Of a stretch of DNA of 64,000 nucleotides, positions 8,592 to 39,518 are shown piece after piece. The position numbers and the translations under genes were made by a program. The first letter of the stretch is position 1. Every line of letters starts with the position of its first letter. Origin of the DNA: a virus. Under the pieces are notes generated by a model. That model made no database searches and was not told the DNA's origin. It saw only the letters and a list, made by a program, of their open reading frames with translations. The DNA lies in IMG/VR virus record IMGVR_UViG_3300009082_000002, positions 1 through 64,000 of that record; one strand, written 5' to 3'.

Positions 8592-9221
8592 ATGCCAACG
8601 CTCGAAGAGATCCGCAGCCGCTTCGCGAAGTCGACAGCGACCGCCCGTCGTGAGGCCGAGCAGAAGACCAACGAGGAGCGGAAGGCCGCAGAGGCGGCAG
8701 AGCAAGCGCGCCTCGTTGAAGAGGCGCGCGAGCTAGCCGAGCGGTTTCGCGCAGAGCAGGAGGAGACCAAAGCCGAGATTCTCGAACGGAAGAGGGCCGA
8801 GCTTGCGCGGATGGCCGAGATGGAACGCGAGGAGGCCACGCGCAGAACGGCCGAAGCAGCTCGCCTTGCCGAAGAGCGTGACAGGGCTGCGGCGCGTGGA
8901 GCGAAGCCTCACGCCGTGGTGCTGCGTTCCGACGAGCATGCGTGCGAGGTCCGTCATCTGGAGTACCGCGGCGGCAGCTCGCGCAAGTTCTGGATGGCCG
9001 GCGTCGTCGGGTGTCGGCTGGTCCGTCGCTGGGGCCGGATCGGCACCACAGGCCAGGGCCAGTGGCAGGAATTTTCTAGCGAGGCGATGGCGCGGAGCGA
9101 GCTTGAGGATCTCTTTCGCCGGAAGCTGGCCAAGGGCTACGCCGTCGCGGATAAGAGTCTGACGCTGGTGGTTCGTTTTTACGTGGACGGGACGGTCGGC
9201 TGGCGGAAACTCCCGGACTGA
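8592..9221 (+). CDS. WGR-domain protein with coiled coil and N-terminal MPTL tag
   Basis: SSRKFW...RRWGRIGTTGQ...KLAKGY matches the WGR pattern; starts MPTLEEIRSRF. Confidence 0.85.
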   Translation: MPTLEEIRSRFAKSTATARREAEQKTNEERKAAEAAEQARLVEEARELAERFRAEQEETKAEILERKRAELARMAEMEREEATRRTAEAARLAEERDRAAARGAKPHAVVLRSDEHACEVRHLEYRGGSSRKFWMAGVVGCRLVRRWGRIGTTGQGQWQEFSSEAMARSELEDLFRRKLAKGYAVADKSLTLVVRFYVDGTVGWRKLPD

Positions 9222-9250
9222 CGCCGGGCAGAAGGATCGAGGAGGGTGTC

Positions 9251-9583
9251 ATGGGTGTGCAGTATACCAAGTGTCCGAAATGTGGCCATGCCGTCGTGCT
9301 GCCGGTCAAGATGCGGCGCGAGCTGGCACGGCGGATCGAGGGCGTGCCGGGATTGTGGATGCCGACCGACTACAACGGTCTCTCGCGCGGAGACGAGTTC
9401 CTGATCCTGCTCAACAACCTGGGCCGCGTCGGCCAGCGGTTCCTCCGCGGGTTCATCTTGCGGAAGTACCAGGGCATCGCGTACACCGTCGTCGGTACTC
9501 GGCGCGGCGGTCGCGGCTTCGTGGACAAGGCGACAGTTGCCAACGCGGCGGCGATCTTCTGCCGAGTGAGGGACGAAGAATGA
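9251..9583 (+). CDS. Hypothetical protein with N-terminal CxxC
   Basis: GGAGG RBS; KCPKCGH; coupled to the next gene. Confidence 0.65.
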   Translation: MGVQYTKCPKCGHAVVLPVKMRRELARRIEGVPGLWMPTDYNGLSRGDEFLILLNNLGRVGQRFLRGFILRKYQGIAYTVVGTRRGGRGFVDKATVANAAAIFCRVRDEE

Positions 9584-10269
9584 AGGGGATTGAACGTAGA
9601 CGCCCGGAGCTTGCGCCCACTGGGGAGAACGTGCTCCGGTTCGTGAACATGCTCCGTACTCAAGCCTTCAAGCTGGCGCGGGCAGAGCAGATCGAAGTGG
9701 AAGACGCGCGGCAGGAGATCGCGATCTGGGTCGCGGAAGCGCTGGCTCAATTCGACTCGCACGCTGGCCCGCTGCGTCCGTGGGTGAAGCGGTATGTCAG
9801 CTTCAAGGTGGTCGGTCGCGTTCGCATCGCGAGCGCGGTCAAGCGCGTGCCGACCCTCTGGGAGTACGAGCAGGAGATCGGCTGGCAAAGGATGCGTGCT
9901 CCGGTAACTGGTGACCTCGGCGTCATTGATGACCTGCCAGCGGATGCGGAGTCGGCGCCGACGCCCGAGGCGCTCCTCCTGCAGGCCGAGCGACGGCAGC
10001 GGTTTCGCGACGCTATCGACGCGGCTCGGGCTCGCCTGCTGGACGCGAGTACGCCGACAACGCGGGCTGTTGCGGAGCGGGTCTTCGACGGCCGCCTGCT
10101 AGAAGCTGTGGACAGCGGGCGTGGTCGTCGTGACGACGCGGTCAATTATCTGCGAGATGAGCTGCAGGCAACGCGACCGCAGGAGCGGTACCACTGGTTG
10201 AAGGCCCGCCGCCTGCTGGAGCAGGAACTTCGGGCGCGTGGTGAATTATGTGGTCCGCAGGCGCGCTAA
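9580..10269 (+). CDS. Putative RNA polymerase sigma factor (ECF-like region 2)
   Basis: EDARQEIAIWVAEALAQFDSHAGPLRPWVKRYV resembles sigma region 2; PTPEALLLQAE linker; region 4 is weak. Confidence 0.6.
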   Translation: MKGIERRRPELAPTGENVLRFVNMLRTQAFKLARAEQIEVEDARQEIAIWVAEALAQFDSHAGPLRPWVKRYVSFKVVGRVRIASAVKRVPTLWEYEQEIGWQRMRAPVTGDLGVIDDLPADAESAPTPEALLLQAERRQRFRDAIDAARARLLDASTPTTRAVAERVFDGRLLEAVDSGRGRRDDAVNYLRDELQATRPQERYHWLKARRLLEQELRARGELCGPQAR

Positions 10270-10328
10270 AGAGCGAACCATCAACCGCAAGGCGCGAGAC
10301 GCCGCGAAGAGAAGAAGGAGGAAACGAG

Positions 10329-11504
10329 ATGGCGAAGAAGGACGAGACCAAGAAGGAGATCGTGTGCCCGAACTGTCTGGGGCTCCACGCGGCCGACGTG
10401 ACCTGCGACGGCGACTCCGACGCGAAGGACGCCTCGTTGCGCGCAGCCTGCCCTGCCAAAGCGACCTGCCTGCGGCTGCAGGAGTTCGCCGCGGAGGATG
10501 GCCGCGACCCGGACGAGCTGGTGGCGGGCAAGAAGACGCTCACCGAGGTCGAGGCGTGGCTCGACGCACAGGCCGACAAGGAGGGGTCCGAGCCCGACGA
10601 CGCCGCGGATGACGACGAGGACGAGAGCGAGGACGACGACGAGAACGAGGACGAGGAGGACGACGAGGAGGAGGAGCCCGAGGGCGAAAACGTGAACGAG
10701 GATGGCGAGGAGGAGACCGAGCCCGCCAACGAGGAGGAGACCATGGTTCAGAAGGCCGAGAAGAAGGCTGGCAAGGCCAGCAAGCCGAAGGCCAAGCCCG
10801 AGGCCAAGCCGAAGGCCAAGCCGAAGGCCAAGCCCGAGGCCGAGGCCAAGCCCGAAGCCGAGGCCGAAGCCGAGGCCGAGCCGAAGAAGAAGGCCAAGGA
10901 CGAGGAGCCCGCCAAGGCCAAGGAGCCCGCCAAGGCCAAGGAGCCCGCCAAGGCCAAGGAGCCCGCCAAGGCCAAGGAACCCGACTGCTTCGGCAAGCCG
11001 GAGGAGTACGACGGCAAGAGCGACCGCTGCCTGGACTGCTCCTCCGCCAACAACTGTCGCCGCAAGGTGTACGTCACGCGCGCCGTCGAGAAGCGCAAGG
11101 CCGAGCGCAACGGCGACGCGGCGCCTCCCGCGGCCGAGGTCAAGGCCAGCACCAAGCCCAAGGCCGAGCGGAAGCCGCGCGCGAAGACGGCTCGCAAGTC
11201 GGCCAAGGGCAGCGACCCGATCCTCGCCATCGCCAAGGCCAAGGGCTGGACGGTGGAGCAGTACGGCAACCACTACGAGGTCTGTCGGACCGAAGGGCTG
11301 ACCGCGGTGCCGATCCTCCGCGTGTTTACCGACCAGGCGCTCGTCCGCGCGGGCCAGCTGCGCAGCAACCCCGCCGACGTGCTGGGCGCGGAGTCGGTCA
11401 GCGAGTCCGTGGCCGAGGGCTTCAAGTACGACATCGCCACGGGCACCAAGACGGTGGTGAACGCGCTGGCCAAGCTCCTCGACGCCGAGCCCGCGATCGT
11501 TTAA
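10329..11504 (+). CDS. Acidic/Lys-Ala-Pro-rich protein with two Cys4 modules (histone H1-like segment)
   Basis: AGGAGG RBS, strong GC3 codon bias, D/E tract, AKPKAKPE and KEPAKA repeats. Confidence 0.8.
   Translation: MAKKDETKKEIVCPNCLGLHAADVTCDGDSDAKDASLRAACPAKATCLRLQEFAAEDGRDPDELVAGKKTLTEVEAWLDAQADKEGSEPDDAADDDEDESEDDDENEDEEDDEEEEPEGENVNEDGEEETEPANEEETMVQKAEKKAGKASKPKAKPEAKPKAKPKAKPEAEAKPEAEAEAEAEPKKKAKDEEPAKAKEPAKAKEPAKAKEPAKAKEPDCFGKPEEYDGKSDRCLDCSSANNCRRKVYVTRAVEKRKAERNGDAAPPAAEVKASTKPKAERKPRAKTARKSAKGSDPILAIAKAKGWTVEQYGNHYEVCRTEGLTAVPILRVFTDQALVRAGQLRSNPADVLGAESVSESVAEGFKYDIATGTKTVVNALAKLLDAEPAIV
10903..10974 (+). repeat. Four perfect 18-bp tandem repeats AGGAGCCCGCCAAGGCCA (KEPAKA)
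   Basis: Copies at 10903, 10921, 10939 and 10957. Confidence 0.95.
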
Positions 11505-11505: not shown

Positions 11506-12066
11506 GTGCCGACCCTCGACGAGCTGCGCGCACGGTTCAAGCGCGGCCGTGCGCCAAAGCCCAACGCACCCCGTCCGGTCAAGCTGCCGGACGGGGTTGC
11601 GCCTTGTGCTGCGTGCGGCGGTCGCGGAACGGTCGACATCGACGGCGGACCAAGCGGCCGACTGCCGCGGTCCGTGAAGTGCGGGCGGTGCGGCGGCAGC
11701 GGTTGCGAGCCCAAGAACTTCGGTGCAGAGCCGGTCGAGGCGAAACGTGGCGAGGAGTTCGTCGAGGAGCACCCGCGCCTGGCTGGCGGGGACGATGATG
11801 CGCGCGCCAAGCGGCGCTTTGACCCGCGGAAGTTCGCAGAGCGAAGGATGAAGGTCAGCCGCGAGAAGTACAAGCTGGCGACGGACGCGCACGGCCAAGC
11901 GGACGCCATTATTTTTTTTGGCAAGCACAAGGGATCGAAGGTGTCGGAACTTGCCCACGCGGAACCGAAGTATCTCATGTGGATCTTGGGCGAGGAATTC
12001 GATGCGGAGCTCAAGCACGCCATCATCCAGCAGCTCGGCCTTGACGCGGAGGACTTCGGGCTATGA
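11506..12066 (+). CDS. MPTL-tag protein with DnaJ-type CxxCxGxG zinc motifs and C-terminal FGKHKG (exonuclease X-T C-terminal/DUF3820-like) domain
   Basis: CAACGGRG...CGRCGGSG; IIFFGKHKGSKVSELAHAEPKYLMWIL. Confidence 0.75.
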   Translation: MPTLDELRARFKRGRAPKPNAPRPVKLPDGVAPCAACGGRGTVDIDGGPSGRLPRSVKCGRCGGSGCEPKNFGAEPVEAKRGEEFVEEHPRLAGGDDDARAKRRFDPRKFAERRMKVSREKYKLATDAHGQADAIIFFGKHKGSKVSELAHAEPKYLMWILGEEFDAELKHAIIQQLGLDAEDFGL

Positions 12067-15000
12067 CCTGGGCCAACCTGCACGTTCATTCGATGTTCAG
12101 CTTGCTCGACGGCGTGGGCTCATATGAGGACTATGCCGCGCGGGTGTTGCGCGAGCTGGAGCGGGAGAGCGATTCCGGTCCCGGTTACCTCGCCGCGACC
12201 GAGCACGGCTCGATGAGGGGACTCGTCCGGTTGAAGAAGGTTGCCGACGAGAAGGCGCTCAAGCCCGTCTTCGGGATCGAGTTCTATGTCGCGAAGGATC
12301 ATAGAATCAAAAGCCTGACGGAAGCGGACCGCAAGCTGGTCAAGGATCAGCCGTCGAAGGAGCGGCGCAGTTTTCAGGCTGCGCTGGAGAAGTACCGTGG
12401 CGTCCGACCTCGCTACCACCTCACGGCGTGGGCGCTTAACAACGCCGGGCTCTCGAATTTGATCCGGCTTTCGTCGCGCGCGTGGGTTGATGGATTCTAC
12501 TACTCGCCGCGGATCGACTTCGACCTACTGGCCGAGCACGGCGAAGGCATCGCGGTCGGGACTGCTTGTTTATCTGGTCCGCTCGCCGAACCAGTGCTGC
12601 GCGGCGAGCCACGTGTAGCTATTGAGAACGCGGAGCGGTTGCGTGACATATTTGGCGACCGGCTGTTCGTTGAGGTCATGCCAACTGCTATGCCAGAGCA
12701 GGACAAGGTGAACCGCGCGCTGGTCCGCATTGCAGAGCGGCTGGGCCTGCCACTGCTCGCGACGACCGATACACACTACGCCAAGCCGAAGGACTGGCGG
12801 CTTCAAGAGGCCCTGCTCTGTGTGCAGACCAACGCGAAGATGAGCGACCCGGATCGCTTCCACTTCACGGCTCGAGACTTCTGGTACCGCAGCGCGCGCG
12901 AGATGCGCGCAGCCTTCGCGGGTTATCATCCTTGGATGAGGCGCCGCGACGTGCTCTCGGCTCTCGCCAACACTGGCAGGCTAGCCGCAGCGTGCGAGGC
13001 GAACCTCGCCTTTGACCGTTTTGCTGCCCTTCTTCCGAGCCCGGCTGGCCGCGAGACGACGCCAGCCGAGGACTTCACGACGCTCAAGAACCTCTGCGTC
13101 CGCGGCTGGCGTGACCGCGCAGTGCCGGAGCGCGTGCGCTGGCTTGTCCGTCACGGTCGCGGCAAGTCGGAAGACGTCGATCGCCGGTATCGCGAGCGGC
13201 TCAAGCGTGAGCTATGCGTCTTCCGAGATCTGAAGTTCAGTCGTTACGCCCTCATCGTGGAGGACGCTGTGGCCTTCGCTCGCAGCCGCGGGATCTTTGT
13301 CGGCCCTGGCCGCGGCAGTGCTGGTGGTTCGCTTGTTGTCTTCCTTCTCGGGATCACAAGCATCGATCCGATTGAACACGACCTTCTATTCGAGCGCTTC
13401 ATTGCGCCCGGTCGAATCGACTTACCCGACATCGACATCGACTTCGAGCAGGAGCGACGGCACGAGGTCATCGAGTACATGGTCGAGAAGTACGGGCGCG
13501 AGCACACCGCGCAGATCACGACCTTCTCCTCGATGAAAGGGCGTGGTTGTTTCCGCGACGTCGCGCGTGTGTTCGGTGTCGGGCCGGAGGAAGTCAACCG
13601 AGTCGCCGGTACGATCCTTCAGCGGTTACCCGGAGAGGAGCGCGAGGACCGAGCTATCACGGATTCGCTGAAGATCTCGCCGCAGTGCAAGCGCTTCAAG
13701 AAGAAGCGGCCCATTGTGTTCAGCGTGGCGCAGCGGCTCGAAGGCACGCTGCGACAAGTCGGGCTGCACGCTGGCGGCGTGGTCGTGTCGCCTGTGCCGC
13801 TGGACCAAGTGGTGCCGCTGGAGAGCAGGCCTGGCGAAGGTGGCTTGCGCGTGCCCGTCATCGCGGTCGACTTCCGCGACGCGCAGGAGTTGAGCCTGGT
13901 CAAGATGGATTTCCTCGGGCTGAAGAACCTGACCGCGATCCGGTACGCGCTGGGAGCTGTCGAGGAGCATCACGACGCCGAGGTCACGCTGGAGGATCTA
14001 GAGGCCAGCCACTTCGACGACGCCGATGTCATCGAGGCGTTCAACGACCACTCGAAGCTCGTCGGGATTTTCCAATTCGACACGACCAGCATGATCTCGA
14101 TCATGCGCTTCACCGTCCGGCGCTTCGAGGACCTCGTCGCGCTCAACGCCCTCAACCGACCGGGTGCGATGCGGTCCGGCCTGGCCGTCATGTACGCCGC
14201 TCGCGCGGACGGTCGGAGCAAGGTGAAGAAGACGCACCCGATTGTGGATGAGATCACAGCCTCGACGCTGGGCGTGCTCACCTACCAGGAACAGGTCTCA
14301 CGGATCTTCGTCGAGCTGGCCGGCTACGACCCGGGCGACGCGGACAAGATCCGAAAGAAGATCGGCAAGAGCGAAGGCGAGAAGGCCATCAAGCCAGAGG
14401 AGGCCAAGTTCATCGCTGGTGCGGCTGCTCACGGGCTGGACCCGAAAGACGCGGCCAAGCTGTTCGCGAAGATCTTGAAGTTCGGTGGGTACGCCTTCAA
14501 CCGTTCGCATGCGGCCGAGTACTCGGCCCTAGCGTATTGGGAGATGCTGCTCAAGGTCCGGTACCCCGCCGCGTTCTACCTCGGCCTCCTCCAGTCGGAA
14601 GACAAGCCCGAGAAGACTGCGCGCTACATCGAGGCCGCGTCGCGGGATGGCGTTGAAGTCCTGACGCCGGACGTGAACCAGAGCCGCGATGTCTATGTGC
14701 TGGCAGACGGTGCAATCCGGCCCCCACTGATCGGGATCAAAGGCGTCGGTCCCAAGTCGACCGCGAGCATCCTAGCGCAGCAACCTTTCCGATCCTTCTC
14801 GGACCTCATCGAGCGAACCGACTCGCGCTCCGTGAACCGGACCGCCTTGTCCGCGTTGGTTCTCGGCGGTGCGCTGGACAGCATCATCCAGAATCGCCGC
14901 TTTGTGTACGAGGAGTTAGAGCGGCTAGTCAACGCAGCACGGAAGGGCGACGGCGCAGTCGTGGACACGGAGATCGCGATGAGCGGTAAGGGTTCGCCCG

Positions 15001-15785
15001 ATTTCGAGCCGCGCGAGCGGGCTCGTCTTGCAATCGGGGCCGGCGTGGTCGGGCCTGGCCAGTCGATGCTGGACGCATACGCTGATCTCTGGGAAGCGCT
15101 GGAGGCAAAGGGTGTCGAGCTGACGCGGCTTGCCGAGATCGACTGGGGCGAGGCGTTGATCTGGGCCAAGGCGGTCGCGCGAGAGTCGAAGACGATCACG
15201 ACAGATGACGGACGCGTCGCTTCGCTGGTCCTGACTGACGGGTCCGGCGTGGACCTCCGCGCCAGGATGGAAGCCGATGAGCTGGACGTGTACGAGAAGG
15301 CCGTGGCGCGAGCGCAGGGCAAGGTGGTCCTGGTCCGCGCAAGCCTGAACGCGAAGGCGAAGCAACTGCGCGCGCTGCAAGTCTGGGACGGCGCTGCGCT
15401 TCACGACGCATGGAAGCGCGAGGCGTTGACGGCCGCGCAGGCCGCGGTCTTCCGAAACCCGTTGCGCAAGTTCAAGCCAAGGTCTGACCTGCGGAAGGGG
15501 AAAGCGCTAGAGCAGGACTGGCTTCGCTTCACGGGTCGTGTCGAGGCGGTCAAACTCTGGAAGGATAAGAATGGACACGCGATGGCCTTCTTCGACGTGC
15601 AGGCTTATCGCGGCTCCGTATCCGCGGTCTGTTTCGCGTCGAGCTTCAACGCGTACCAGGCGCACCTCCGACCTGGTGTCGTGGCACGCTTCGAGTTGAT
15701 CCGCGGCGGCGGTGGCGGTTGGCTGCTGGACGCCGACAGCGGGTGCCGAGTGGAGCCCTTGGAAGATGGTCCACACCGGGGCTAG
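12063..15785 (+). CDS. dnaE: DNA polymerase III alpha subunit
   Basis: PHP motif HVHSMFSLLDG; GPGRGSAGGSLV; PDIDIDF; KMDFLGL; GYAFNRSHA; C-terminal OB folds. Confidence 0.97.
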   Translation: MTWANLHVHSMFSLLDGVGSYEDYAARVLRELERESDSGPGYLAATEHGSMRGLVRLKKVADEKALKPVFGIEFYVAKDHRIKSLTEADRKLVKDQPSKERRSFQAALEKYRGVRPRYHLTAWALNNAGLSNLIRLSSRAWVDGFYYSPRIDFDLLAEHGEGIAVGTACLSGPLAEPVLRGEPRVAIENAERLRDIFGDRLFVEVMPTAMPEQDKVNRALVRIAERLGLPLLATTDTHYAKPKDWRLQEALLCVQTNAKMSDPDRFHFTARDFWYRSAREMRAAFAGYHPWMRRRDVLSALANTGRLAAACEANLAFDRFAALLPSPAGRETTPAEDFTTLKNLCVRGWRDRAVPERVRWLVRHGRGKSEDVDRRYRERLKRELCVFRDLKFSRYALIVEDAVAFARSRGIFVGPGRGSAGGSLVVFLLGITSIDPIEHDLLFERFIAPGRIDLPDIDIDFEQERRHEVIEYMVEKYGREHTAQITTFSSMKGRGCFRDVARVFGVGPEEVNRVAGTILQRLPGEEREDRAITDSLKISPQCKRFKKKRPIVFSVAQRLEGTLRQVGLHAGGVVVSPVPLDQVVPLESRPGEGGLRVPVIAVDFRDAQELSLVKMDFLGLKNLTAIRYALGAVEEHHDAEVTLEDLEASHFDDADVIEAFNDHSKLVGIFQFDTTSMISIMRFTVRRFEDLVALNALNRPGAMRSGLAVMYAARADGRSKVKKTHPIVDEITASTLGVLTYQEQVSRIFVELAGYDPGDADKIRKKIGKSEGEKAIKPEEAKFIAGAAAHGLDPKDAAKLFAKILKFGGYAFNRSHAAEYSALAYWEMLLKVRYPAAFYLGLLQSEDKPEKTARYIEAASRDGVEVLTPDVNQSRDVYVLADGAIRPPLIGIKGVGPKSTASILAQQPFRSFSDLIERTDSRSVNRTALSALVLGGALDSIIQNRRFVYEELERLVNAARKGDGAVVDTEIAMSGKGSPDFEPRERARLAIGAGVVGPGQSMLDAYADLWEALEAKGVELTRLAEIDWGEALIWAKAVARESKTITTDDGRVASLVLTDGSGVDLRARMEADELDVYEKAVARAQGKVVLVRASLNAKAKQLRALQVWDGAALHDAWKREALTAAQAAVFRNPLRKFKPRSDLRKGKALEQDWLRFTGRVEAVKLWKDKNGHAMAFFDVQAYRGSVSAVCFASSFNAYQAHLRPGVVARFELIRGGGGGWLLDADSGCRVEPLEDGPHRG

Positions 15786-15832
15786 CTTGCGAACCATGTA
15801 GCAGGGCCAACAGGCCCAGAAGGAGCAAGGAC

Positions 15833-16351
15833 ATGCAGCGTGAGGTTGTGGTGGTCATCCGCGACGAGGAGGTCAACATCACCAAGGAACTCGGCATCGG
15901 GCCGGACCTGGGCCAGGAGATGGCGAGCATCCCGGGTCAGCTCGCGTACTTCGGGACCATGCTCTCCGAGGCGCAAGCGAACCAGGCCCGCGTCGAGGCC
16001 GAGTACCGGGCCTGGCGGGCGAAGCAGATCGAGGTCTTCCTCGAGGCGGACCCGAAGCTGGCCGAGTGGAAGGTCCGCGCGCAGGTGGAGGTGCTGCCGC
16101 AGTTCATGAGCCACAAGGAGGCGCAGGCCAAGGCCGAGAAGTTCGTCCACGACCTCTGGGCCGTGTACGACGCCTTCGGGCGGAAGGCCGACATGCTCCG
16201 CAGCAAGGGAGCCCGCGAGCGGATGGATCTGGAGAAGGGGTACGGCGGGCTCGGTTGCGGCGCCAGCGACGAAAGCGAGGATGAGCGGCGCGAGCGCGTC
16301 GCCGAGATCACAAACAGGACCAAGGGCCGCAAGCGTGAGCGGCCGGAGTAG
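15833..16351 (+). CDS. UvsY-like recombination mediator
   Basis: Helical protein with LGQEMASIPGQLAYF...AFGRKADMLRS pattern, immediately upstream of SSB and RecA. Confidence 0.55.
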   Translation: MQREVVVVIRDEEVNITKELGIGPDLGQEMASIPGQLAYFGTMLSEAQANQARVEAEYRAWRAKQIEVFLEADPKLAEWKVRAQVEVLPQFMSHKEAQAKAEKFVHDLWAVYDAFGRKADMLRSKGARERMDLEKGYGGLGCGASDESEDERRERVAEITNRTKGRKRERPE

Positions 16352-16363: not shown

Positions 16364-17587
16364 ATGGGAAAGACAGATATCGCGAAGCTGAAGAAGTACA
16401 AGCGGGAACGCTCGACGGGGAAGTTCTTGCTCATCCCCGAGGGCGACTCTCTCATTTACCTGGCCCCCGCCGCGCGCGAGAACTGGGATCTCCCCTTCCT
16501 GGAGACGGCGGTTCACTTCGGGCTCTCCGGCACGGTCATGTGTCTGAACCCTGATCGCAACCCGCTGCTCAAGGACGAGGAGTTCCTCAAGCTCTGCAAG
16601 AAGGCCAAGGTGGACGTCACCGGCCCGTGCCCGATCTGCCAGGCGCTCCAGGGCAAGCCCGGCAAGCCCGGGCTCTGGGACACGGACAAGGAAACGGCGC
16701 GGAAGATCAAGTGCTCGCCGCGCTTCATCATGGCCGCAGCCCTGCTCTACCATCGCAAGGACTCGACGCTCGACTACGCGCCGCGCGAGCCCTTCGAGGT
16801 GCGGCCCATGCCGCAAGGCAAGAAGAATTGGGAAGCCTTCGTCGACGTGTTCATCGACCTCGACCGCGACATCACCGACCCGATGGAGGCCGTCCTGATC
16901 AAGATCCACCGTGACGGCACGGGCGTCGAGAGCCAGTACACCTGCGCGGCCGATCCCAAGTCCGCGGCCAAGCCGATGTGCCTGGCCAAGTCCGCGCGCG
17001 CCAAGATCCGCGAGGCGCTCCAGCCCGGGTCCGAGTGCGATCCCTACGTCGTCGCGCTCGACTGGGTCAAGCCGAAGTCAGAGCTGACCGCCATGCTCGA
17101 CGGCATCGACATCGACGACGACGACGACGACGACGAGATCGAGGAGCCGGGCGGCAGCGAGGACGAGAAGGAGGGCGACGAGTGCTTCGGCCTCGACTAC
17201 GACCCGCGCGACGAGGACTGCCAAGGCTGCGCCAGGGCCAAGGCCTGCGCAAAGGAGGCCGGGCACGCCGACGCCACTGACGACGACGAGGACGAGAAGT
17301 CGGGCGAGGACGACGACGAGGACGAGAAGTCGGACGAGGACGACGAGGACGACGAGGACGACGACGAGGACGACGACGAGGACGACGAGAAGTCGGACGA
17401 CGGCGAGAGCGAGGAGCCGGGCGACGACGATGATCTCGACGAGCTGGAGAAGGCGCTCGACGAGAAGCGCACCAGCAAGTCCCCGAAGACGAGCACCAAG
17501 AAGTCCCCCGCCAAGGCGGCGACGGCCGCGAAGGGTGCGGCGGCGGCGAAGTCCGACAGGACCAAGCCCCGCAGGCGCCCGGCCTAG
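16364..17587 (+). CDS. gp32-like single-stranded DNA-binding protein
   Basis: VHF...CLN...CPIC zinc site; DITDP...IKIHRDGTG...Y; long acidic tail; located between the UvsY-like gene and RecA. Confidence 0.75.
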   Translation: MGKTDIAKLKKYKRERSTGKFLLIPEGDSLIYLAPAARENWDLPFLETAVHFGLSGTVMCLNPDRNPLLKDEEFLKLCKKAKVDVTGPCPICQALQGKPGKPGLWDTDKETARKIKCSPRFIMAAALLYHRKDSTLDYAPREPFEVRPMPQGKKNWEAFVDVFIDLDRDITDPMEAVLIKIHRDGTGVESQYTCAADPKSAAKPMCLAKSARAKIREALQPGSECDPYVVALDWVKPKSELTAMLDGIDIDDDDDDDEIEEPGGSEDEKEGDECFGLDYDPRDEDCQGCARAKACAKEAGHADATDDDEDEKSGEDDDEDEKSDEDDEDDEDDDEDDDEDDEKSDDGESEEPGDDDDLDELEKALDEKRTSKSPKTSTKKSPAKAATAAKGAAAAKSDRTKPRRRPA

Positions 17588-17608
17588 TCCGCGCAGTGAG
17601 TTCACCTT

Positions 17609-17676
17609 GCGGGCTCCCGCATCACGGCTAACCGCTAGCTCTCCCGCTTGCGATGGTCATCGGTGCGGGAGCCCGC
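17609..17676 (+). other. Intergenic hairpin (13-bp perfect stem), possible terminator or processing site
   Basis: GCGGGCTCCCGCA (17609-17621) pairs with TGCGGGAGCCCGC (17664-17676); followed by GTCTTGTGT and the recA RBS. Confidence 0.6.
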
Positions 17677-17696
17677 GTCTTGTGTAGGAGGTCCAC

Positions 17697-18749
17697 GTGC
17701 CCCGCAAGAGTACAACGAGGACCCGTCCTGGCGTTGTGTCGCTGGCGCGCGAGCTCGCCAAGGCTGATGCGAGCCTGCTAATCGGCGATGCGGCCAGCGC
17801 GCACATGACCATCCGCGGAGTTGTGCCGACCGGGCTGGAGAACATCGACATCGCCATCGGGATCGGCGGGCTGCCGTGGGGCCGGCTCTCGATGATCCAA
17901 GGACCGGAGGGCGGCGGCAAGACCTCCTTCTGCCTGTCGTGTTGTCGCGCGGTTCAACGGGAGGGCGGGGTCGCCGTGTACTATGATCCCGAGCGGAAGC
18001 TGAACAAGCCTTTCGCCTCCCGCAACGGGGTCGACACTGACGAGCTGGTCCTCGGCCACCCGGACACGATGGAGGCGATGGCGTACAAGATCATGAAGCT
18101 CGCCGACCGAGCCGTGGATATGGCCGTCGAGTACGAGCGGGACATCCCGGTCCTCGTCGTCGTGGATTCGATCACGGCGCTCAAGACCGGGCTGGATACG
18201 CCGCTCAAGAAGATGGTCGAGAAGGGCACGGCGCCGAGAGTCGGCGGGCAGGCCGCGATCATGTCAGCCCTGCTCCGCGAGGTCATCCCGAAGATCGCGC
18301 AGACTTCGCTCTCGCTCCTGTTCGTGTCGCAGCTTCGGACCAAGCTCACCAGCTTCGGCGCGCAGCAAGACTCGACGTGTGGCAACGCGCCCCGTTTTTA
18401 TGCCTCGCTCATCCTTCAGGCGAGACCCGAGACCGAGTGGGAGAGCAGTCGGAAGGTGGGCGCGAAGGTCGAAGCGGAGGTCGTGAAGAACCAGGTGGCA
18501 CAGCCGTTCCAGCGGGCTACTTACAAGATCAACGGCGCGCGTGGCCTCGACTACGAACACTCGCTGATGGAGGCTTGCCTCGTGCAAGACCTCGCGGCGA
18601 AGTCCGGGAGCTGGACTGTCTTCGACGAGGCCAGATTCGGCAAGCTCAAGGTGCAAGGTGCCCGCGGTCTGCGCAGGCTCGACAAGGCCAGCGGCGGCGA
18701 ACTTTACAAGAAGATCCGAAGTGCGGTCCGTACCGCCGCGGGGTGGTAG
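17697..18749 (+). CDS. recA: RecA/UvsX recombinase
   Basis: PTGLENIDIAIGIGGLPWGR; GPEGGGKT; VVDSITAL; FVSQLR; RFYAS; VVKNQVAQPF. Confidence 0.95.
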   Translation: MPRKSTTRTRPGVVSLARELAKADASLLIGDAASAHMTIRGVVPTGLENIDIAIGIGGLPWGRLSMIQGPEGGGKTSFCLSCCRAVQREGGVAVYYDPERKLNKPFASRNGVDTDELVLGHPDTMEAMAYKIMKLADRAVDMAVEYERDIPVLVVVDSITALKTGLDTPLKKMVEKGTAPRVGGQAAIMSALLREVIPKIAQTSLSLLFVSQLRTKLTSFGAQQDSTCGNAPRFYASLILQARPETEWESSRKVGAKVEAEVVKNQVAQPFQRATYKINGARGLDYEHSLMEACLVQDLAAKSGSWTVFDEARFGKLKVQGARGLRRLDKASGGELYKKIRSAVRTAAGW

Positions 18750-18750
18750 C

Positions 18751-19977
18751 ATGGCGAAGAAGCACGCAAGGCCGAAGCCAGTCAGCGGTAACCGATACCT
18801 CGTCTTCAGCGACCTGCACGCGGACAACCTGTTGCCGCTCTCGGTCTACAACGAGGATGGTCTCGGCGACCGGCTGGTGGACGCGGTCGAGGCGCTCACG
18901 CGAATCTGGCGCGTTGCGGAGGAGGAGGGCGTCCAGGCGATTCTCTTCCTTGGCGACCTCTTCAACCGACCGCGCGTTGACTCGATGACCATGACTACTA
19001 TCGGCCGTGCGTTGTACAAGCTGCAAGATGCCTTCCAGCTCCCGCTGGTGTTGTTGCCCGGGAATCATGACTCCGCCGGGCGACTGACCACGTCCTCAAC
19101 GGTGGACGTCTTCGGTGCGCTCGCGCTGCCGCACGCCATCATCGCGCGCGACGAGGAGCCCGCGGTATGGGATGCCGATCCGACCTTCTGTTTCGTTGCC
19201 AAGCGGTATGACCGGCCGGATGTGGCCGGGCCGAACTTGGCCGCGCACCTCGCGAGCGTGCCCGACCCGAGCAAGACGATCCTGCTCCTGCACCACGACA
19301 TCAAAGGCGCCAAGGTCGGGAGCTGGATGACCGAAGGCCTGGATCGCGACGTGCTCAAGCGCTTCCGCCTGGTATTGTCCGGCCACTATCATCAGCCGCA
19401 AGTCCTGACGCCCAGCGGCGAGCGGATCGAGCCGTCGCCGGAATTCGAGAGTGTGCCCTTCGGCGACCTCGACTGCGGCACCGTGGTCTACATCGGGGCG
19501 CCGCAGCAGATCGACTTCGGCGACGTCGGCGGTGCGCGCGGTGTCTGGCTGCTGGAGACCTTCCCAACCGGCAAGGTGAGCCTGGAGTTCCGTCAGCTTG
19601 ACGGGCCGCGCTTCGCGTCCGTGGACTTCGAGCATGACGCGTCCTATGCGGACGCGGTCAAGCCGCTGGCTGAACCGGCACAGGTCGGCGCGAAGTACGT
19701 CCGGCTCCGTGTGAGCGGGCCGAAGCATGCGCTCGACGCGCTTGACCGCGAACAGTACGAGAAGACCGCACGGCTCGCGCTGGATTCGGTTCCGCGTGCC
19801 TTCAAATGGGAGGTTGATGTGACCGCGCACCACAAGGCGCGGCTCGCGCTGGACACGCACCTCGGGATCGATGCGTTGATCGAAGCATACGTCAACTCGG
19901 ACCTGGTGGCTCTCGGCGAGCTTGACCCGGAAGATGTGCTCGCCTACGGCCGAGCCGTGCTGGAGGATGTGCGATGA
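18751..19977 (+). CDS. sbcD: SbcD/Mre11-like nuclease
   Basis: SDLH, GDLF, PGNHD, LHH and SGHYH metallophosphoesterase motifs. Confidence 0.92.
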   Translation: MAKKHARPKPVSGNRYLVFSDLHADNLLPLSVYNEDGLGDRLVDAVEALTRIWRVAEEEGVQAILFLGDLFNRPRVDSMTMTTIGRALYKLQDAFQLPLVLLPGNHDSAGRLTTSSTVDVFGALALPHAIIARDEEPAVWDADPTFCFVAKRYDRPDVAGPNLAAHLASVPDPSKTILLLHHDIKGAKVGSWMTEGLDRDVLKRFRLVLSGHYHQPQVLTPSGERIEPSPEFESVPFGDLDCGTVVYIGAPQQIDFGDVGGARGVWLLETFPTGKVSLEFRQLDGPRFASVDFEHDASYADAVKPLAEPAQVGAKYVRLRVSGPKHALDALDREQYEKTARLALDSVPRAFKWEVDVTAHHKARLALDTHLGIDALIEAYVNSDLVALGELDPEDVLAYGRAVLEDVR

Positions 19978-20222
19978 GAGACTCGGTTCACAGCGAACGA
20001 AAGGTCACGACTCCAGAGGCGTATCACGGCTCTGGCCTTGCCGGGCGTTGTCCGAGATGCGGTCGAGCGGCGCAGTTTCACGACTTTGAGCTTGGCACGG
20101 CAGGCGTCGGCACCATGGTCGATGCCGTGAGCGAGGCCTGCTGTGGCCTAGTTGCTATTGCCAAGATCAAGGTAGACGGGAGTCGCGTCGAGGAGCAGAT
20201 CGACTGGATGGAGGTCTCCTGA
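19974..20222 (+). CDS. Small hypothetical Cys-containing protein
   Basis: Coupled to both neighbours; CPRC. Confidence 0.55.
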   Translation: MRDSVHSERKVTTPEAYHGSGLAGRCPRCGRAAQFHDFELGTAGVGTMVDAVSEACCGLVAIAKIKVDGSRVEEQIDWMEVS

Positions 20223-22147: not shown

Positions 22148-22296
22148 TGCTAGGCAGCTGTCTTCGGACCATGGTCGGATGTGCCGCGATGGGCGTAGCA
22201 GCGACCGCGTCTCTGATGGCCGCGTTGGTGGCTCTGCTGGCAGAGGTAGTGGATGATGTCGCCAGCCTTTTCGACAGCGGAGGAATCGACCCGTGA
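22147..22296 (+). CDS. Small hydrophobic (membrane) protein, 49 aa
   Basis: Translated by hand as MLGSCLRTMVGCAAMGVAATASLMAALVALLAEVV...; overlaps the sbcC stop and the next start. Confidence 0.5.
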   Translation: MLGSCLRTMVGCAAMGVAATASLMAALVALLAEVVDDVASLFDSGGIDP

Positions 22297-22916: not shown

Positions 22917-23160
22917 TCTTGAATCGCTGACGGACTGGCAACTCCTAGTCCTCCAGGCGATCCGAGAGCTCTCCACTGACCTCGATGACAACGACGGGCT
23001 CACCCCTGGCGACATCGGAATGGGTGCGGGAGTCGACTACGATTCCGCTTCCAGCCGCGCTTGCTCCGCGTTGAAGGCGCTGGTGGAGCGTGGGTTCGTC
23101 GAGAAGAAAGCTCGCGGCCGCTATCGGCTCACGAAGCTCGGTTGGTGTGCCCGTGGGTGA
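22897..23160 (+). CDS. Winged-helix (MarR-like) DNA-binding protein
   Basis: LTDWQLLVLQAI...ALKALVERGFVEKKARGRYRLTKLG. Confidence 0.7.
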   Translation: MSSRADSLESLTDWQLLVLQAIRELSTDLDDNDGLTPGDIGMGAGVDYDSASSRACSALKALVERGFVEKKARGRYRLTKLGWCARG

Positions 23161-30586: not shown

Positions 30587-31471
30587 ATGTCCGACAAGCC
30601 CGTGATTGTGATCGATCTGCCAGGAGTTCTGCTCAACGAAATCGGAGACCACATGCCCGACGAGCCGTCGAGCGTGCGGCCTGGCGTACGTGACTTCCTG
30701 AAGGCACTGTGCGAGAGAGGCTACCGCGTCCACGTCTGGACCGCCATGCCAGAGGACCTGGTCGTGAAGTGGCTGGCCGTGCACGGGCTTGACCGCTATG
30801 TCGAGGCTGCACACTTCGGCAAGGCGCCGCGCGCGATCCTTCTCGACCCTTTCGCCGTCCTGTTCGACGGGCAGTGGGGCCACGCCCTCGGCCTGCTCGA
30901 AGGCGTCAAGCCGTACTGGGAGACTCCCACCGAACAGCCGCCTGTCCACGGCCGCCCGGCCTTCGTGAAACCCAAGCTCGACTCGGCCATCGCGCTCGGG
31001 CTCCGTCTGCGGCAGGCCGAGGAGCGCGTGGCGACGGATCTGATCACGCGGCTCGTCGTGCGGGCCAAGGATGCGGAGTGGGAGCAGGACAGGATCGACG
31101 AGCTGATCGTCCTGCTCGAATCCTGGTTTCAGGAGCGCGAGTGGCACTTGCTCGACATCGCCAAGGCGGAAAACGAGGAGCTGCGCTCGCTGGTCCGAGA
31201 GACAGGACAGCGGCTCGGCCAGATCACGGCGGGCCAGATCTCGATGCTGAAGGAGCTGCAGACCTACCGAAAGGAGCTGCCGGAGCTGAAGCGCGCGCTG
31301 GCCGAAGCCGAGGCCAGGCTGGACGCAGCCAACGCGACGGTCGATCTCATGCGCGACCAGGCCGCGCAGCGCCGGGCCGGAAGTCCACCTGGGGAGCCTG
31401 ACGCGAATCATCAACCGGACGAGCTGCCGGACGTCATCGGCGGCGAGCTGGACGGAGATCGGGAGCCATGA
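30587..31471 (+). CDS. HAD-like domain (degenerate) plus coiled coil
   Basis: VIVIDLPGVL; PGVRDFLKAL; VHVWTA; K...ILLDP. Confidence 0.6.
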   Translation: MSDKPVIVIDLPGVLLNEIGDHMPDEPSSVRPGVRDFLKALCERGYRVHVWTAMPEDLVVKWLAVHGLDRYVEAAHFGKAPRAILLDPFAVLFDGQWGHALGLLEGVKPYWETPTEQPPVHGRPAFVKPKLDSAIALGLRLRQAEERVATDLITRLVVRAKDAEWEQDRIDELIVLLESWFQEREWHLLDIAKAENEELRSLVRETGQRLGQITAGQISMLKELQTYRKELPELKRALAEAEARLDAANATVDLMRDQAAQRRAGSPPGEPDANHQPDELPDVIGGELDGDREP

Positions 31472-32385
31472 AGCAGGCATACATCGAAAAGAGCTTCCGC
31501 GCGGCATCGCTCTCGATCATCACGCACGCGCTGGAGATCATCAACGAGTACGCCGCCGAGGGTTACTCGCTCTCGCTGCGCCAGCTCTTTTACCAGTTCG
31601 TCTCGCGCGACCTCCTGCCGAACACGCAGAAGAGTTACAAGATGCTCGGCGGCGTGATCAGTGACGGCCGGCTGTGCGGGCTGATCGACTGGGACGCCAT
31701 CGAGGACCGTGGCCGCGAGACCGACCGCCGGACGCGGACGTTCTGGTCGAGCCCGCGCGCTATCCTCGAAGCCTGCGCGGATCAATTCAGGATCGACCGC
31801 TGGCTCACGCAGCCGTACCACGTCGAGGTCATTGTCGAGAAGCAGGCGCTCGAAGGCGTGCTGGTTCCGGTGTGTGCCGAGCTCGGCGTCCGCTTCACGG
31901 CGAACAAGGGCTACAGCTCACAATCCTTCATGCGCGCGAAGGGCGTTGAGCTGCTGGAGTGGCGCGCGAAACACCACAAGGAGATCGTGGTCTTCTACTT
32001 GGGCGACCATGACCCGTCCGGGCTTGACATGGATCGCGACGTCCGTGAGCGACTGGAGATGTTCAGCGAAGGTCCGGTCGAGGTGCGGCGACTGGCGCTC
32101 ACGCGCGAGCAGATCGACCGCTGGAGCCCGCCGCCTAACCCGGCCAAGTTCACCGACTCGCGCGCCGACGCGTACATCGTGGAGCATGGCCGCCAGTCGT
32201 GGGAGCTTGACGCAATCGAGCCGCGCGATCTGGCGCGGCTGGTCAGCGAGGCCGTCCTCGCGTACCGCGACGAGCCGCTCTGGGTTCGCGAGTGCCGCCG
32301 CGAGAGCACCATGGTCGACGACCTGAAGAAGATGGCCAAGCGCTACAAGGACCCGGCGATCGACGACGAGAGCGAGGAGGATTAA
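31468..32385 (+). CDS. Topoisomerase VI subunit A/Spo11-like TOPRIM protein
   Basis: LSLRQLFY; EVIVEKQAL; KGYSS; YLGDHDPSG; WELDAI. Confidence 0.8.
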   Translation: MKQAYIEKSFRAASLSIITHALEIINEYAAEGYSLSLRQLFYQFVSRDLLPNTQKSYKMLGGVISDGRLCGLIDWDAIEDRGRETDRRTRTFWSSPRAILEACADQFRIDRWLTQPYHVEVIVEKQALEGVLVPVCAELGVRFTANKGYSSQSFMRAKGVELLEWRAKHHKEIVVFYLGDHDPSGLDMDRDVRERLEMFSEGPVEVRRLALTREQIDRWSPPPNPAKFTDSRADAYIVEHGRQSWELDAIEPRDLARLVSEAVLAYRDEPLWVRECRRESTMVDDLKKMAKRYKDPAIDDESEED

Positions 32386-33402: not shown

Positions 33403-33885
33403 ATGAGCGCTACCGTATTCGCTCGCCAGCCCGACCGGTACGAGATCGTTGCGCTGCCAGTCGAGCGCAAGCCCGGCTGCCTGACTGTCAACCCGACTCT
33501 GGTAGACATCCTCTATCGCGAGACGATCGGACAGATCCTCGCGGAAGGCGTCCAGCTCGGCGGCGAAGCCGGCTACCAGCGCGTCATCCACGGCCTGCAG
33601 ACCATCGTCAAGCTCCGCATGGGAGCGCGAGGTGCAAGGATGCCGAGCGATAGCAAACAGTCGCTTTTGAAGCTGATGGAATCTGCGGCAGGCAAGATGT
33701 TCGAGGTTGTAGTCCGCGAGACCGCGGATGACCTTGCCATGCCGCGCGAGCTGGTCCGCAAGGCCTTCGGCGAGCCGCAGCCGGATGACGGGCCGGAGGT
33801 GACCGCGGCGCGCGAGAAGCTCATCCAGTATTTTTCCTGTGCGTCGCGCCTCGAAGCGCGGGCCGTGGTCAGTAAGGACGTCTAA
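33403..33885 (+). CDS. Hypothetical protein
   Basis: TAATG coupling to the next gene. Confidence 0.6.
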   Translation: MSATVFARQPDRYEIVALPVERKPGCLTVNPTLVDILYRETIGQILAEGVQLGGEAGYQRVIHGLQTIVKLRMGARGARMPSDSKQSLLKLMESAAGKMFEVVVRETADDLAMPRELVRKAFGEPQPDDGPEVTAAREKLIQYFSCASRLEARAVVSKDV

Positions 33886-34313
33886 TGCCGACGCTGGACG
33901 ATCTGCGCGAGCGCTTCAAGCAACACCGGCCGCGAGCGCTGCGCCGTGACAACATCCGGTCGGTGCCGTCCGGCAACGTGCCGTCGACCGAGTGGATGTC
34001 AGTCAAGCCGCTGCCAGCGTGGGCCAGCCCGGCCGACGCGGAGATTCTCGACACGATACGGATCAAGATTCGCGTGTCCGAGAGAACGATCGAGAGGTTG
34101 TTCCGACCGCCGATGAATGAGCGCGAGCTGCGTGTCTTCTTCCTTGACCGCTTGCTCGCGGTGCGCGGCGTGACTTCGCTGTCGCCGGAAGAGATCAAGC
34201 CCATTGCGCGCGACTGCGATCTTTCGTCTGGCGACTTCATCTTCATCGTCGAGGTGCCGCGCCGGTTGCGCGCCGCCCTGGCTGATGAGTTAATCGAGGA
34301 GATCAAATTATGA
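33885..34313 (+). CDS. Hypothetical protein with N-terminal MPTL tag
   Basis: Starts MPTLDDLRERFK; coupled on both sides. Confidence 0.7.
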   Translation: MPTLDDLRERFKQHRPRALRRDNIRSVPSGNVPSTEWMSVKPLPAWASPADAEILDTIRIKIRVSERTIERLFRPPMNERELRVFFLDRLLAVRGVTSLSPEEIKPIARDCDLSSGDFIFIVEVPRRLRAALADELIEEIKL

Positions 34314-36596: not shown

Positions 36597-36648
36597 TGCT
36601 TTCGGTGCTTTGAGAAGCTGACCGGCCGGAAGCCGGGGGAGGTAGTCG

Positions 36649-37169: not shown

Positions 37170-37199
37170 GTCGCGCCTTTTCTGGTGCGAGTGAACTGC

Positions 37200-37272: not shown

Positions 37273-37317
37273 ATGGGAAAGAAAAATCACATCGCGTTAA
37301 CCGGAGGAGAGGCGAGC

Positions 37318-37539: not shown

Positions 37540-37541
37540 CG

Positions 37542-37877: not shown

Positions 37878-37878
37878 C

Positions 37879-38112
37879 GTGGATCGCCGGTACTACAGCC
37901 GCAGGCACTTCGAGCTGCTCCGCAATGGCCCGCCAGACACCGCCGAGACCATCGCGGAGCGGCTGCGCCAACGTGCCGCCGCGGAGCAGGCGATGCGAGA
38001 GCGCGACGAGCGCTGGCCGGAGCTGACGGCCGAGAACGCTGGCGAAGCGCTGGTCTGGCAGCGAGCCCGTGAGCGCGAGCTGTGCGAACTGCTCGCAGCG
38101 GAGAAAGCATGA
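37879..38112 (+). CDS. Hypothetical protein
   Basis: GGAGG RBS, GTG start. Confidence 0.55.
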   Translation: MDRRYYSRRHFELLRNGPPDTAETIAERLRQRAAAEQAMRERDERWPELTAENAGEALVWQRARERELCELLAAEKA

Positions 38113-38411
38113 ATTTGACGCACATCCCGCACCATGCGGAGACAGGTGGCGACTATGTGCGGATCAAGTTCCGTCCGGTCGCGGCTGACGGAACTGAACT
38201 CCGCGCCCGCTGGGCGTGGGCTGTCCGGCTGCACGCCGGCCAGACCAGGCTTCCGCGCTACCTTCTGATCACGCGCGAAGGCGAGAACGTGGTCGCCGAC
38301 CGCGAGCAGGACAACGTGATCACCGAGACCCGTTCGATCCTCGTCGGCACGCCAATGGAGGAGCGGCCAGCCGCCATGAACTTGAAGTACGGCTGGCTAG
38401 AGGAAGTCTGA
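38109..38411 (+). CDS. Hypothetical protein
   Basis: ATGA coupling. Confidence 0.6.
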   Translation: MNLTHIPHHAETGGDYVRIKFRPVAADGTELRARWAWAVRLHAGQTRLPRYLLITREGENVVADREQDNVITETRSILVGTPMEERPAAMNLKYGWLEEV

Positions 38412-38546
38412 TGGCGAGTAAACTTTCTGGCGCAACGCTCGTCGATCGGGCTCACTGCCGAAGGCCACACGTGGGCAGAGGAAGCCTCCGGTTGAACCCG
38501 GGCCAGAGGCGAAAGCAGGACGACGTGGACGCGGTACGGGGACGTG

Positions 38547-39518
38547 ATGCCGACGCTCGATGAACTTCGACGCCGTTTCAGGAAGGACACGCGGCTCAAG
38601 CCCGGCGGCCGGTCAGGTACCGTCTCGCCCAAGCTGAAGCTGGAGCTGAAGACCACTGGCAGCGACGGCAAGCCGCTGTTCACAGAGGAAGCCCTGCTCG
38701 AGATGGTGCGGTTGGAAGCGAACTTCCTCGCCAAGCTCGGCATCCCGCCAGAGCTTGTGCTGCCGACGCTCGAACATGCCAAGTCGGATGACCCGGCCCG
38801 CATCGCCGAGGCGATTTTCGATCTCGCGGACAAGGCTGGGATCGGACTCGGCCCCGCCGCAGTCGCGACGGCCAGAATCAGGACCCAGCTCGCGAGCCCA
38901 TGGCTGGAAGAGTTGCTCCAGCGGGTGAAATCCGAGATGCGCAACTCCGTCCACCGACACCGCCGGAGCTACGCGGAAGTCGAGTCCGCCATCGGTGACT
39001 TTCTCAACGGGGCCCGAGCCGCGTGGACGCCGAGGGCGGACACGGACCCTGCATGGTCGCGCCCACACGCGGAAGCTGTGCGCGAGGCCACGAGCGCGCT
39101 GGATGCGGACTGGCTGGCGAACGAGTACGTGGTCAAGACCTTTAGCACGACCGCGACCGTGGAGCTGCACGGCCGCGGGAAGATCCACATTGGCACACCA
39201 ACGGTCGTCCTCGCGACGCGGGACGGTGTCGTGCCGTGGATGCTGGTCGACAGGCTGTTCTATCGCTGGCAGAAGAAGACCGGGAAGCGCGACGGCAGGA
39301 CCGTCTTCGAGCATGACGTCGCGATGGCGACGGTCAAGGAGCTTGGCCGCCGCGCCGGGTTGAGGCTGACGACGGACCGAGTACTTCTGAACGACTTCGC
39401 AATCGTCCCCAACCGCAAGAACTCGTCAGGCTATCTGTACACGCGACTCGTCATGCGAGCGGAGGACGCGAACGCGTTGATCGCGATGACCAGCCGACAC
39501 GGAGGGGACGACCGATGA
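38547..39518 (+). CDS. Hypothetical protein with N-terminal MPTL tag
   Basis: Starts MPTLDELRRRFRK. Confidence 0.75.
   Translation: MPTLDELRRRFRKDTRLKPGGRSGTVSPKLKLELKTTGSDGKPLFTEEALLEMVRLEANFLAKLGIPPELVLPTLEHAKSDDPARIAEAIFDLADKAGIGLGPAAVATARIRTQLASPWLEELLQRVKSEMRNSVHRHRRSYAEVESAIGDFLNGARAAWTPRADTDPAWSRPHAEAVREATSALDADWLANEYVVKTFSTTATVELHGRGKIHIGTPTVVLATRDGVVPWMLVDRLFYRWQKKTGKRDGRTVFEHDVAMATVKELGRRAGLRLTTDRVLLNDFAIVPNRKNSSGYLYTRLVMRAEDANALIAMTSRHGGDDR

Follow-up and report, generated by a model that had tools for sequence, protein, structure and literature searches.

Why should four genes of one virus, whose products are otherwise dissimilar, open with the same eleven amino acids? The question is raised by the window studied here, i.e. 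the first 64 kb (64,000 nucleotides) of IMG/VR record IMGVR_UViG_3300009082_000002, a complete genome of 107,406 bp with direct terminal repeats from an uncultured phage (coded G000). The N-terminal peptide concerned, hereafter the tag, is present in the following four places:

8592..8624, plus strand: tag copy 1, MPTLEEIRSRF, heading a 209-aa gene (8592-9221)
11506..11538, plus strand: tag copy 2, (GTG)PTLDELRARF, heading a 186-aa gene (11506-12066)
33885..33917, plus strand: tag copy 3, MPTLDDLRERF, heading a 142-aa ORFan gene (33885-34313)
38547..38579, plus strand: tag copy 4, MPTLDELRRRF, heading a 323-aa ORFan gene (38547-39518)

The analysis indicates that the tag is probably a portable recognition motif that is conserved at the level of the peptide and has some common reader. 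A six-frame search of the window and of the whole genome with the expression [MV]PTL[DE][DE][LI]RxRF gave exactly four matches (8592, 11506, 33885 and 38547), all on the plus strand and each opening a gene with an ATG or GTG start. The looser pattern PT[LIVM][DEQN][DEQN][LIVM] matched nothing beyond these four in any frame of the whole genome. Using a position matrix derived from tag instances, the G000 tags scored 32-35 bits and the next best of ~215,000 six-frame positions scored 15.8 bits. The four tagged open reading frames (ORFs) had coding-type G+C contents at third codon positions (0.77-0.83), and their starts were backed by a Shine-Dalgarno sequence or by a stop/start overlap with the gene upstream. 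A fifth candidate copy at GTG 24958 (VKIDELRARL) was dropped, as its homologues reach further upstream and lack the motif.

The bodies that follow the tag are unrelated. Gene 8592-9221, which starts 15 nt after a gene for a CobT-like protein with a von Willebrand factor A (vWA) domain, encodes the tag, a long charged helix and a WGR domain (PF05406, E 5e-15) at residues 128-187. The product of 11506-12066 has a basic linker rich in Pro after the tag, then a Zn ribbon (CxxCxGxG) and, at its C-terminus, an ExoX-like_C domain (FGKHKG); the stop codon of this gene overlaps the start of the DnaE gene at 12063. The start at 33885 overlaps the stop of the preceding gene (TAATG). Neither 33885-34313 nor 38547-39518 has a Pfam or PHROG family or a homologue even in the closest relatives, and the ESM Atlas returned nothing useful for either body. 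The original prediction of one tag on four unrelated proteins was thus borne out, with four matches genome-wide, all at supported gene starts and on dissimilar bodies.

Conservation of the tag was then compared between DNA and peptide. Pairwise DNA identity among the four copies was 70-79% within the tag and 20-47% in the 30 nt on either side. In 60 pairwise codon comparisons of the G000 tags, 22 codons were identical, 23 synonymous and 15 non-synonymous. For 18 instances from six genomes, the information at codon positions 1, 2 and 3 of the tag was 1.33, 1.55 and 0.43 bits, as compared to 0.28, 0.23 and 0.32 bits for control codons further downstream in these genes. The tag is thus at background level in its third positions, indicating selection on the amino-acid sequence and not on DNA or RNA. 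These values, together with the unrelated flanks, confirmed the earlier claim that the peptide rather than the DNA is conserved. Randomisation of the synonymous sites indicates that the copies date far back and have been maintained.

The distribution of the tag among related phages was examined using a terminase profile, which retrieved 144 IMG/VR contigs of one uncultured family; 18 genomes or large fragments of this family were scanned with the matrix. No close cultured relative was found, the top terminase match among 50,697 phage records being 26% identical. Matches of ≥25 bits were N-termini only and, among the relatives, were confined to G005, G006/G026, G001/G002, G003, G010 and G025, whose core proteins are 25-50% identical to those of G000. 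At least 18 further tagged proteins were detected in six other family genomes (terminase about 35-68% identical), and the tags of these relatives are as follows:

G005: MAPGLEELRSRF (WGR orthologue); MAPSIDDLRKRY (ExoX_C); VPSLSELRHRF; a weaker MSLDRMRRRF
G006 and G026: MPTLDELRSLF; MAPSLAEMRDRF (WGR orthologue); MKLTDLRKRY (ExoX_C); MKLDELRKRY; MKADELRRRF
G001 and G002: MPTLDQLRQRF (probably a WGR-like protein); MPTLDELRRRF
G003: MPTLDDLRKRF; MPTLDEVRQRY (ExoX_C); MPTLEEWRKHF
G010: xSLDDLRNRF on three tandem small genes
G025: MPSLEEMRRRF (ExoX_C, upstream of DnaE); MKLDEMRRRF (overlapping the end of Mre11)

At least 12 unrelated bodies carry the tag at their head in seven related genomes, so that the portability of the tag, which had been proposed from the window, was upheld. 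Tagged orthologues were otherwise only 33-50% identical. When the first 14 residues were masked, every detectable homologue of the tagged proteins still opened with the tag or a variant, which answers the earlier concern that homologues might lack it. A tagged or variant-tagged ExoX_C gene abuts DnaE on its upstream side in 11 genomes (i.e. G000, G005, G006, G026, G003, G025, G009, G007, G016, G013 and G027), with diverged peptides in G009 (MPTIDEIRVWL), G016 (MPSLKKIRQWA), G007 (SPSREDWERWL) and G013/G027 (STK[DE][KQ]IR[ER]M[FL]). Canonical-tag genomes are dispersed over the terminase and capsid trees, with G025 a sister to G016 and G002 placed beside G009. As they spread over the whole of these trees, the tag is old; several deep lineages have maintained it while the remainder of each bearer became unrecognisable through divergence. 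When the tag-less or variant-tag relatives were searched de novo for alternative N-terminal peptides in common, only DNA repeats and paralogues were obtained.

Two further observations concern individual relatives. The three G010 genes (117, 134 and 60 aa) are adjacent on the minus strand at 76808-77728 (L132:16808-17728) and a 13-residue stretch is identical in two of them; the trio is a tandem expansion of tagged genes. A G002 match on the plus strand at 29939 (PSIEEIRSRF after TTG) was not counted, being internal to a called 285-aa protein (P0013).

Occurrence of the tag outside the family was assessed by profile and DNA searches. Two profile searches, one of 5.8 billion proteins and one of 1.84 billion cluster representatives, returned nothing beyond the family other than repeat or low-complexity proteins, these searches having low power with an 11-residue motif. 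Degenerate-DNA scans gave nine matches in 596 Gb of prokaryote genomes, four in IMG/VR (15 with a looser pattern) and eight in JGI metagenomes, and also recovered the family members G001/G002, G003 and G025. The possibility that the motif is common at random N-termini was therefore not supported, the matches in prokaryote DNA being rare. Look-alikes outside the family were single N-termini of PaaI thioesterases (MPTLDELRERFEKD), DUF4054 head-tail proteins (MPTIDDFRERYPEF), an HNH endonuclease, Rpn-like proteins and two virion-type proteins of 900-1300 aa. L182 (IMGVR_UViG_3300033121_000324) and L172 (IMGVR_UViG_3300001605_000235) are unrelated viral contigs whose 941- and 1316-aa virion-like proteins open with MPS[IF][DE][DE][IL]R[KS]R[FY]P followed by D(L/Y)(T/S)D(E/S)(Q/E)(I/L)IE. 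The look-alikes were judged to be convergent N-terminal helices, of a kind that can arise independently. Many unrelated bearers within one genome were seen only in this phage family.

The consensus of the aligned tags (alignment A2) is M-P-[TS]-[LI]-[DE]-[DE]-[LIM]-R-x-R-[FY], with an invariant Arg8, Arg10 in ≥90% of instances and a nearly invariant acidic pair at positions 5-6. From this residue pattern, the tag is expected to form a short, stable, capped amphipathic alpha-helix: Thr/Ser3 and Glu6 make a Ser/Thr-x-x-Glu capping box, the hydrophobic residues Leu4, Leu7 and Phe11 are spaced i, i+3, i+7, and charge is acidic toward the N-terminal end and basic toward the C-terminal end. In an AlphaFold model that included the G006 tag, the helix starts at the Leu of the tag. 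The 30 residues past the tag have a hydrophobic fraction of 0.18 versus 0.28 at equivalent positions in 79 conserved genes (Mann-Whitney p = 2e-4) and are richer in Pro and Gly, a composition that fits a flexible tether. A basic flexible linker had been proposed at this position. Net charge is, however, strongly positive in the G000/G005/G006 clade only, and the tag of the WGR proteins runs directly into the long charged helix instead of a coil. The residues after Phe/Tyr11 vary (AK-S, KR-G, KQ-H and RK-D in G000; GT-S, ST-P, TV-G and AP-G in others), and x-K-[ASG] fits only some bearers of the G000/G005/G006 clade.

What the tag might recruit its bearers to was considered in the light of gene position. 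Two of the tagged genes lie in a replication and repair module, in which the gene order is DnaC-like loader, DnaB, primase, CobS/MoxR-like AAA+ protein, CobT-like vWA protein, tagged WGR protein and two unknowns; then tagged ExoX_C protein, DnaE, a 210-aa unknown, a 407-aa protein, RecA, Mre11 and Rad50; and lastly a PD-(D/E)xK nuclease, flap endonuclease and UDG. The features that bear on a partner for the tag are:

1306-24743: replication and repair module
5045-6274: CobS/MoxR-like AAA+ gene, preceding the CobT-like gene
6288..8576, plus strand: CobT-like protein with a C-terminal vWA domain and an intact metal ion-dependent adhesion site (MIDAS; DxSGS...SDG), candidate partner
12063..15785, plus strand: DnaE-type DNA polymerase III alpha, translationally coupled to the second tagged gene, candidate partner
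15719-16351: 210-aa protein, alternative receptor candidate
16364..17587, plus strand: T4 gp32-like single-stranded DNA-binding protein (SSB), 407 aa, candidate partner
44083-45279: DnaN-type sliding clamp of G000 (PF00712, 27-29 bits)

We tentatively favour a docking motif by which the bearers are brought to one shared site, encoded by the phage, in DNA replication and repair, an explanation whose chances we put slightly short of even. It is favoured because the near-universal bearer is coupled to DnaE, a second bearer has a domain of the DNA-break-binding type and the tagged genes all map to the replication/early half of the genome, with none in the structural module. Bearers elsewhere also lie near replication or repair genes, one in G025 overlapping the end of Mre11 and one in G006 (314-907) lying 760 nt upstream of the clamp gene. 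Under this explanation, the helix at the extreme N-terminus would act as a short linear docking motif, usually on a hydrophobic-poor tether. The oldest and most constant bearer is the small ExoX_C protein whose gene is translationally coupled to DnaE, and the tag was also placed on the WGR protein and on fast-evolving ORFan proteins. All bearers would bind one phage-encoded site, drawing accessory and lineage-specific proteins to replicating phage DNA. The tag has been kept for as long as the phage family has existed.

Within the docking explanation, the gp32-like SSB is our guess for the receptor, by analogy with T4, and a guess that is rather unlikely to be right; DnaE or the 210-aa protein (15719-16351) could serve as alternative receptors. 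The SSB was preferred because it would be present in many copies on single-stranded DNA, has an extremely acidic tail that would complement Arg8 and Arg10, and has a counterpart in T4 gp32 that is a recruitment hub. An AlphaFold model of the SSB core (predicted local distance difference test score, pLDDT, 72) matched the RB69 and T4 gp32 cores in Foldseek (E 8e-7, probability 1.0, TM 0.61-0.63). Beyond the core are a very acidic tail of ~100 residues, a Cys4 module (17183-17248), a helix LDELEKAL (17435-17458) and a basic end. In T4 gp32, the C-terminus recruits partners (e.g. Dda) and the N-terminus binds the neighbouring molecule (PMC11551737). The end of the phage SSB (17435-17587) holds an amphipathic acidic helix that is conserved throughout the family, LD(E/A)LE..L(D/E), and then a tail rich in Lys; by analogy with the gp32 C-terminus, this helix is probably the SSB's own partner-binding peptide. 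A more speculative extension, which we regard as unlikely, is a private N-terminal address code throughout this family of phages of about 100 kb, in which one phage receptor (e.g. the SSB filament) would read the 11-residue helix and so gather polymerase accessories and ORFan effectors at replicating phage DNA, and new clients would join by merely acquiring the tag.

Several further possibilities were tried and rejected. That the tag mimics the N-terminal peptide of the phage SSB was given a probability of 0.25% by hhalign (tag profile A2 versus SSB N-terminus profile A6). A BLAST hint that the SSB is restricted to tag-bearing genomes was not sustained, as a gene holds the same position in all genomes, and phyletic profiling found no gene with that restriction. 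The phage beta clamp is detectable only in G000, G005 and G006 and not in the tag-bearing G002, G003, G010 and G025, which argues against it as a universal partner. The tag also misfits the patterns QL[SD]LF, QLxLxL and Qxx[LIM]xx[FY][FY], having helical i, i+3, i+7 spacing and no Gln. The two genes that follow the clamp gene (45289-46314 and 46311-46682) have no family assignment.

A number of results weigh against docking at one replication or repair site. No common partner was identified among the candidates examined (i.e. clamp, vWA, SSB and phyletic profile). Two of the four G000 bearers and most of those in relatives are ORFans that are linked to DNA metabolism by map position only. As regards the SSB, no covariation between the tag and the C-terminal helix was visible in family alignments, and the basic linker that would suit an acidic tail is confined to the G000/G005/G006 clade. 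Matrix scans revealed no recognisable tag in G014, G015, G011, G012 and G017. The concerted variants RxW[LV] (G009) and RxM[LF]Q (G013/G027) were considered as signs of receptor co-evolution and rejected, their bearers being paralogous or the ORF doubtful.

The main rival explanation is a capsid-targeting sequence (CTS), the T4 analogy drawn in the original prediction, in which the tag would bind the scaffold or core so that its bearers enter the head and are injected along with the DNA. In that case, the ORFans among them would serve in anti-defence or takeover, and the WGR protein would bind DNA ends. The format matches that of the T4 CTS, i.e. ~10 N-terminal residues on diverse, fast-evolving proteins (PMC3012670), and lineage-specific ORFans make up half of the bearers or more. 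We consider this explanation improbable. The confinement of tagged genes to the replication/early half and the translational coupling of the most conserved bearer to DnaE both argue against it, no constant motif of the prohead-protease cleavage type follows the tag, and the matrix scan detected no structural protein with the tag.

Recruitment by the CobS/CobT-like pair, the AAA+/vWA chaperone named in the original prediction, is quite improbable. The MIDAS would grip the acidic pair at positions 5-6 and the bearer would be passed to the MoxR-type ATPase for remodelling. Gene order is in keeping with such a client tag, as the vWA gene has a tagged gene immediately after it in G000, G005, G006, G026, G003, G013 and G027, and the post-vWA tagged body differs in three subclades (WGR; unknown; membrane helix plus ExoX_C-like). 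The MIDAS is intact and invariant and the acidic pair nearly so, and the vWA domain of vWA/MoxR pairs serves as a substrate adaptor, according to a published account (PMC9976466). The vWA and tagged WGR genes of G006 share a reading frame and hence provide a natural fusion spacer; one AlphaFold model was generated for the G006 vWA domain, the 36-residue spacer obtained by read-through of two stop codons, and the tag. The vWA domain had a pLDDT of 85-95 and the tag 46-69, as compared to ~55 for the free SSB C-terminal helix. This result, a weak negative with pLDDT as the only readout, showed no sign of docking and so lent the chaperone no support. G007 and G016, moreover, retain CobS/CobT yet bear only a diverged peptide, on the pre-DnaE protein.

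The start of the CobT-like gene is probably the ATG at 6288, which follows AGGGAGGAG; the TTG at 5829 of the longest ORF would overlap the AAA+ gene. In four relatives the post-CobT gene is untagged and sigma-70 region-2-like (DAIQEGRLALL), i.e. G002 (74054-75130), G009 (42623-43810), G007 (12266-13273) and G010 (30842-31528). From its sequence, this gene possibly encodes a phage sigma factor, absent from that position in G000.

An equally doubtful alternative is that the bearers have no common partner. The tag would be a generic helix cap that aids folding, expression or N-terminal stability; it would have come down with the ExoX_C gene and spread to other genes through recombination at their starts. 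The closely similar N-termini within folded domains of unrelated families (i.e. PaaI, DUF4054, HNH and the two large virion-type proteins) are in its favour. Those look-alike helices continue into the fold, whereas in the phage family an unrelated hydrophobic-poor sequence comes next. The near-invariance of Arg8, Arg10 and aromatic residue 11 over at least 12 bodies and deep divergence goes beyond the needs of a helix cap, and the randomised synonymous sites point to old, maintained copies.

Lastly, an RNA or DNA element over the start codons (e.g. a translational operator or promoter-leader cassette), with the peptide as a by-product, has a negligible probability and was refuted as a regulatory cassette: although repeated promoter-leader cassettes are present elsewhere in the genome (pair 51804/53202), third-position information in the tag is at background while first and second positions carry 1.3-1.6 bits, the flanks are dissimilar between copies, and no conservation is independent of codon position or extends into these flanks.

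Comparison of the module between genomes gave some additional observations. DnaE is 1545-1623 aa long in G002 (62676-67547), G009 (49611-54371), G010 (19879-24594) and G016 (40685-45322) versus 1240 aa in G000, and BLAST aligns only about the first 810 residues of the G002 protein; these features suggest an intein or inserted domain. Mre11 and Rad50 are fused in one ORF of ~1020-1046 aa in G003 (17103-20243), G013 (12289-15351) and G027 (6740-9802) and are separate genes in G000 (18658-19977 and 20222-22147, respectively). A Cys4 module, C[FL]G.(D)[YH]...C..C......C, occurs in the window at 17183-17248, in the acidic tail of the SSB, and at 10374-10469, and elsewhere at L121:16181-16270 and L127:14317-14406. 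The copy at 10374-10469 lies near the N-terminus of a conserved 418-aa protein (10248-11504) and of its relatives in every family genome; in G005 (96181) and G006 (94317) the module stands immediately past the tag.

If one receptor does read the tag, the peptide would be a label that groups unannotatable ORFans with the polymerase accessory and WGR proteins. It would give a clue as to how a replisome that combines a bacterial-type DnaE with a T4-type SSB enrols extra factors, and would be a small portable peptide for sending cargo to the receptor site. If capsid targeting were true, the tag would instead mark the injected protein set of a phage group without a cultured member. Comparison of N-termini within and between related phages can expose short linear motifs that are missed by domain databases.

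No published description of this tag was found, and shared targeting or recruitment peptides (i.e. the T4 CTS, SSB tails and clamp motifs) are known as a kind. The T4 CTS, MKTYQEFIAE, resembles the tag weakly (M-x-T-hydrophobic-x-E-hydrophobic). The T4 internal proteins IPI, IPII and IPIII carry this N-terminal CTS of ~10 residues, which is portable to foreign cargo (PMC3012670). As in T4, a short N-terminal peptide is the sole common part of diverse, fast-evolving phage proteins. Unlike the T4 CTS, the tag belongs to another phage lineage, has conserved bearers in the replication module and lacks a cleavage motif. Short recruitment motifs of replisome hubs include the T4 gp32 C-terminal peptide, the acidic C-terminal tails of T7 gp2.5 and gp4, the C-terminal tip of bacterial SSB and clamp-binding or PIP-box peptides. 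Most of these lie at the C-terminus or internally and are acidic or extended, whereas the phage tag is N-terminal, helical and half basic. The RPA32C-binding helices of UNG2, XPA, SMARCAL1 and TIPIN are amphipathic, partly basic, near the N-terminus and dock on a domain of the eukaryotic SSB. The phage tag differs in that it has no sequence relation to these helices and is not eukaryotic, and its binding to an SSB is hypothetical. As in recruitment of Dda by gp32 (PMC11551737), a short tethered motif is found on several proteins of DNA metabolism and one hub is proposed. If the SSB reads the phage tag, the arrangement would be the mirror image of that in bacteria, in which the peptide is the SSB tail and is read by the clients.

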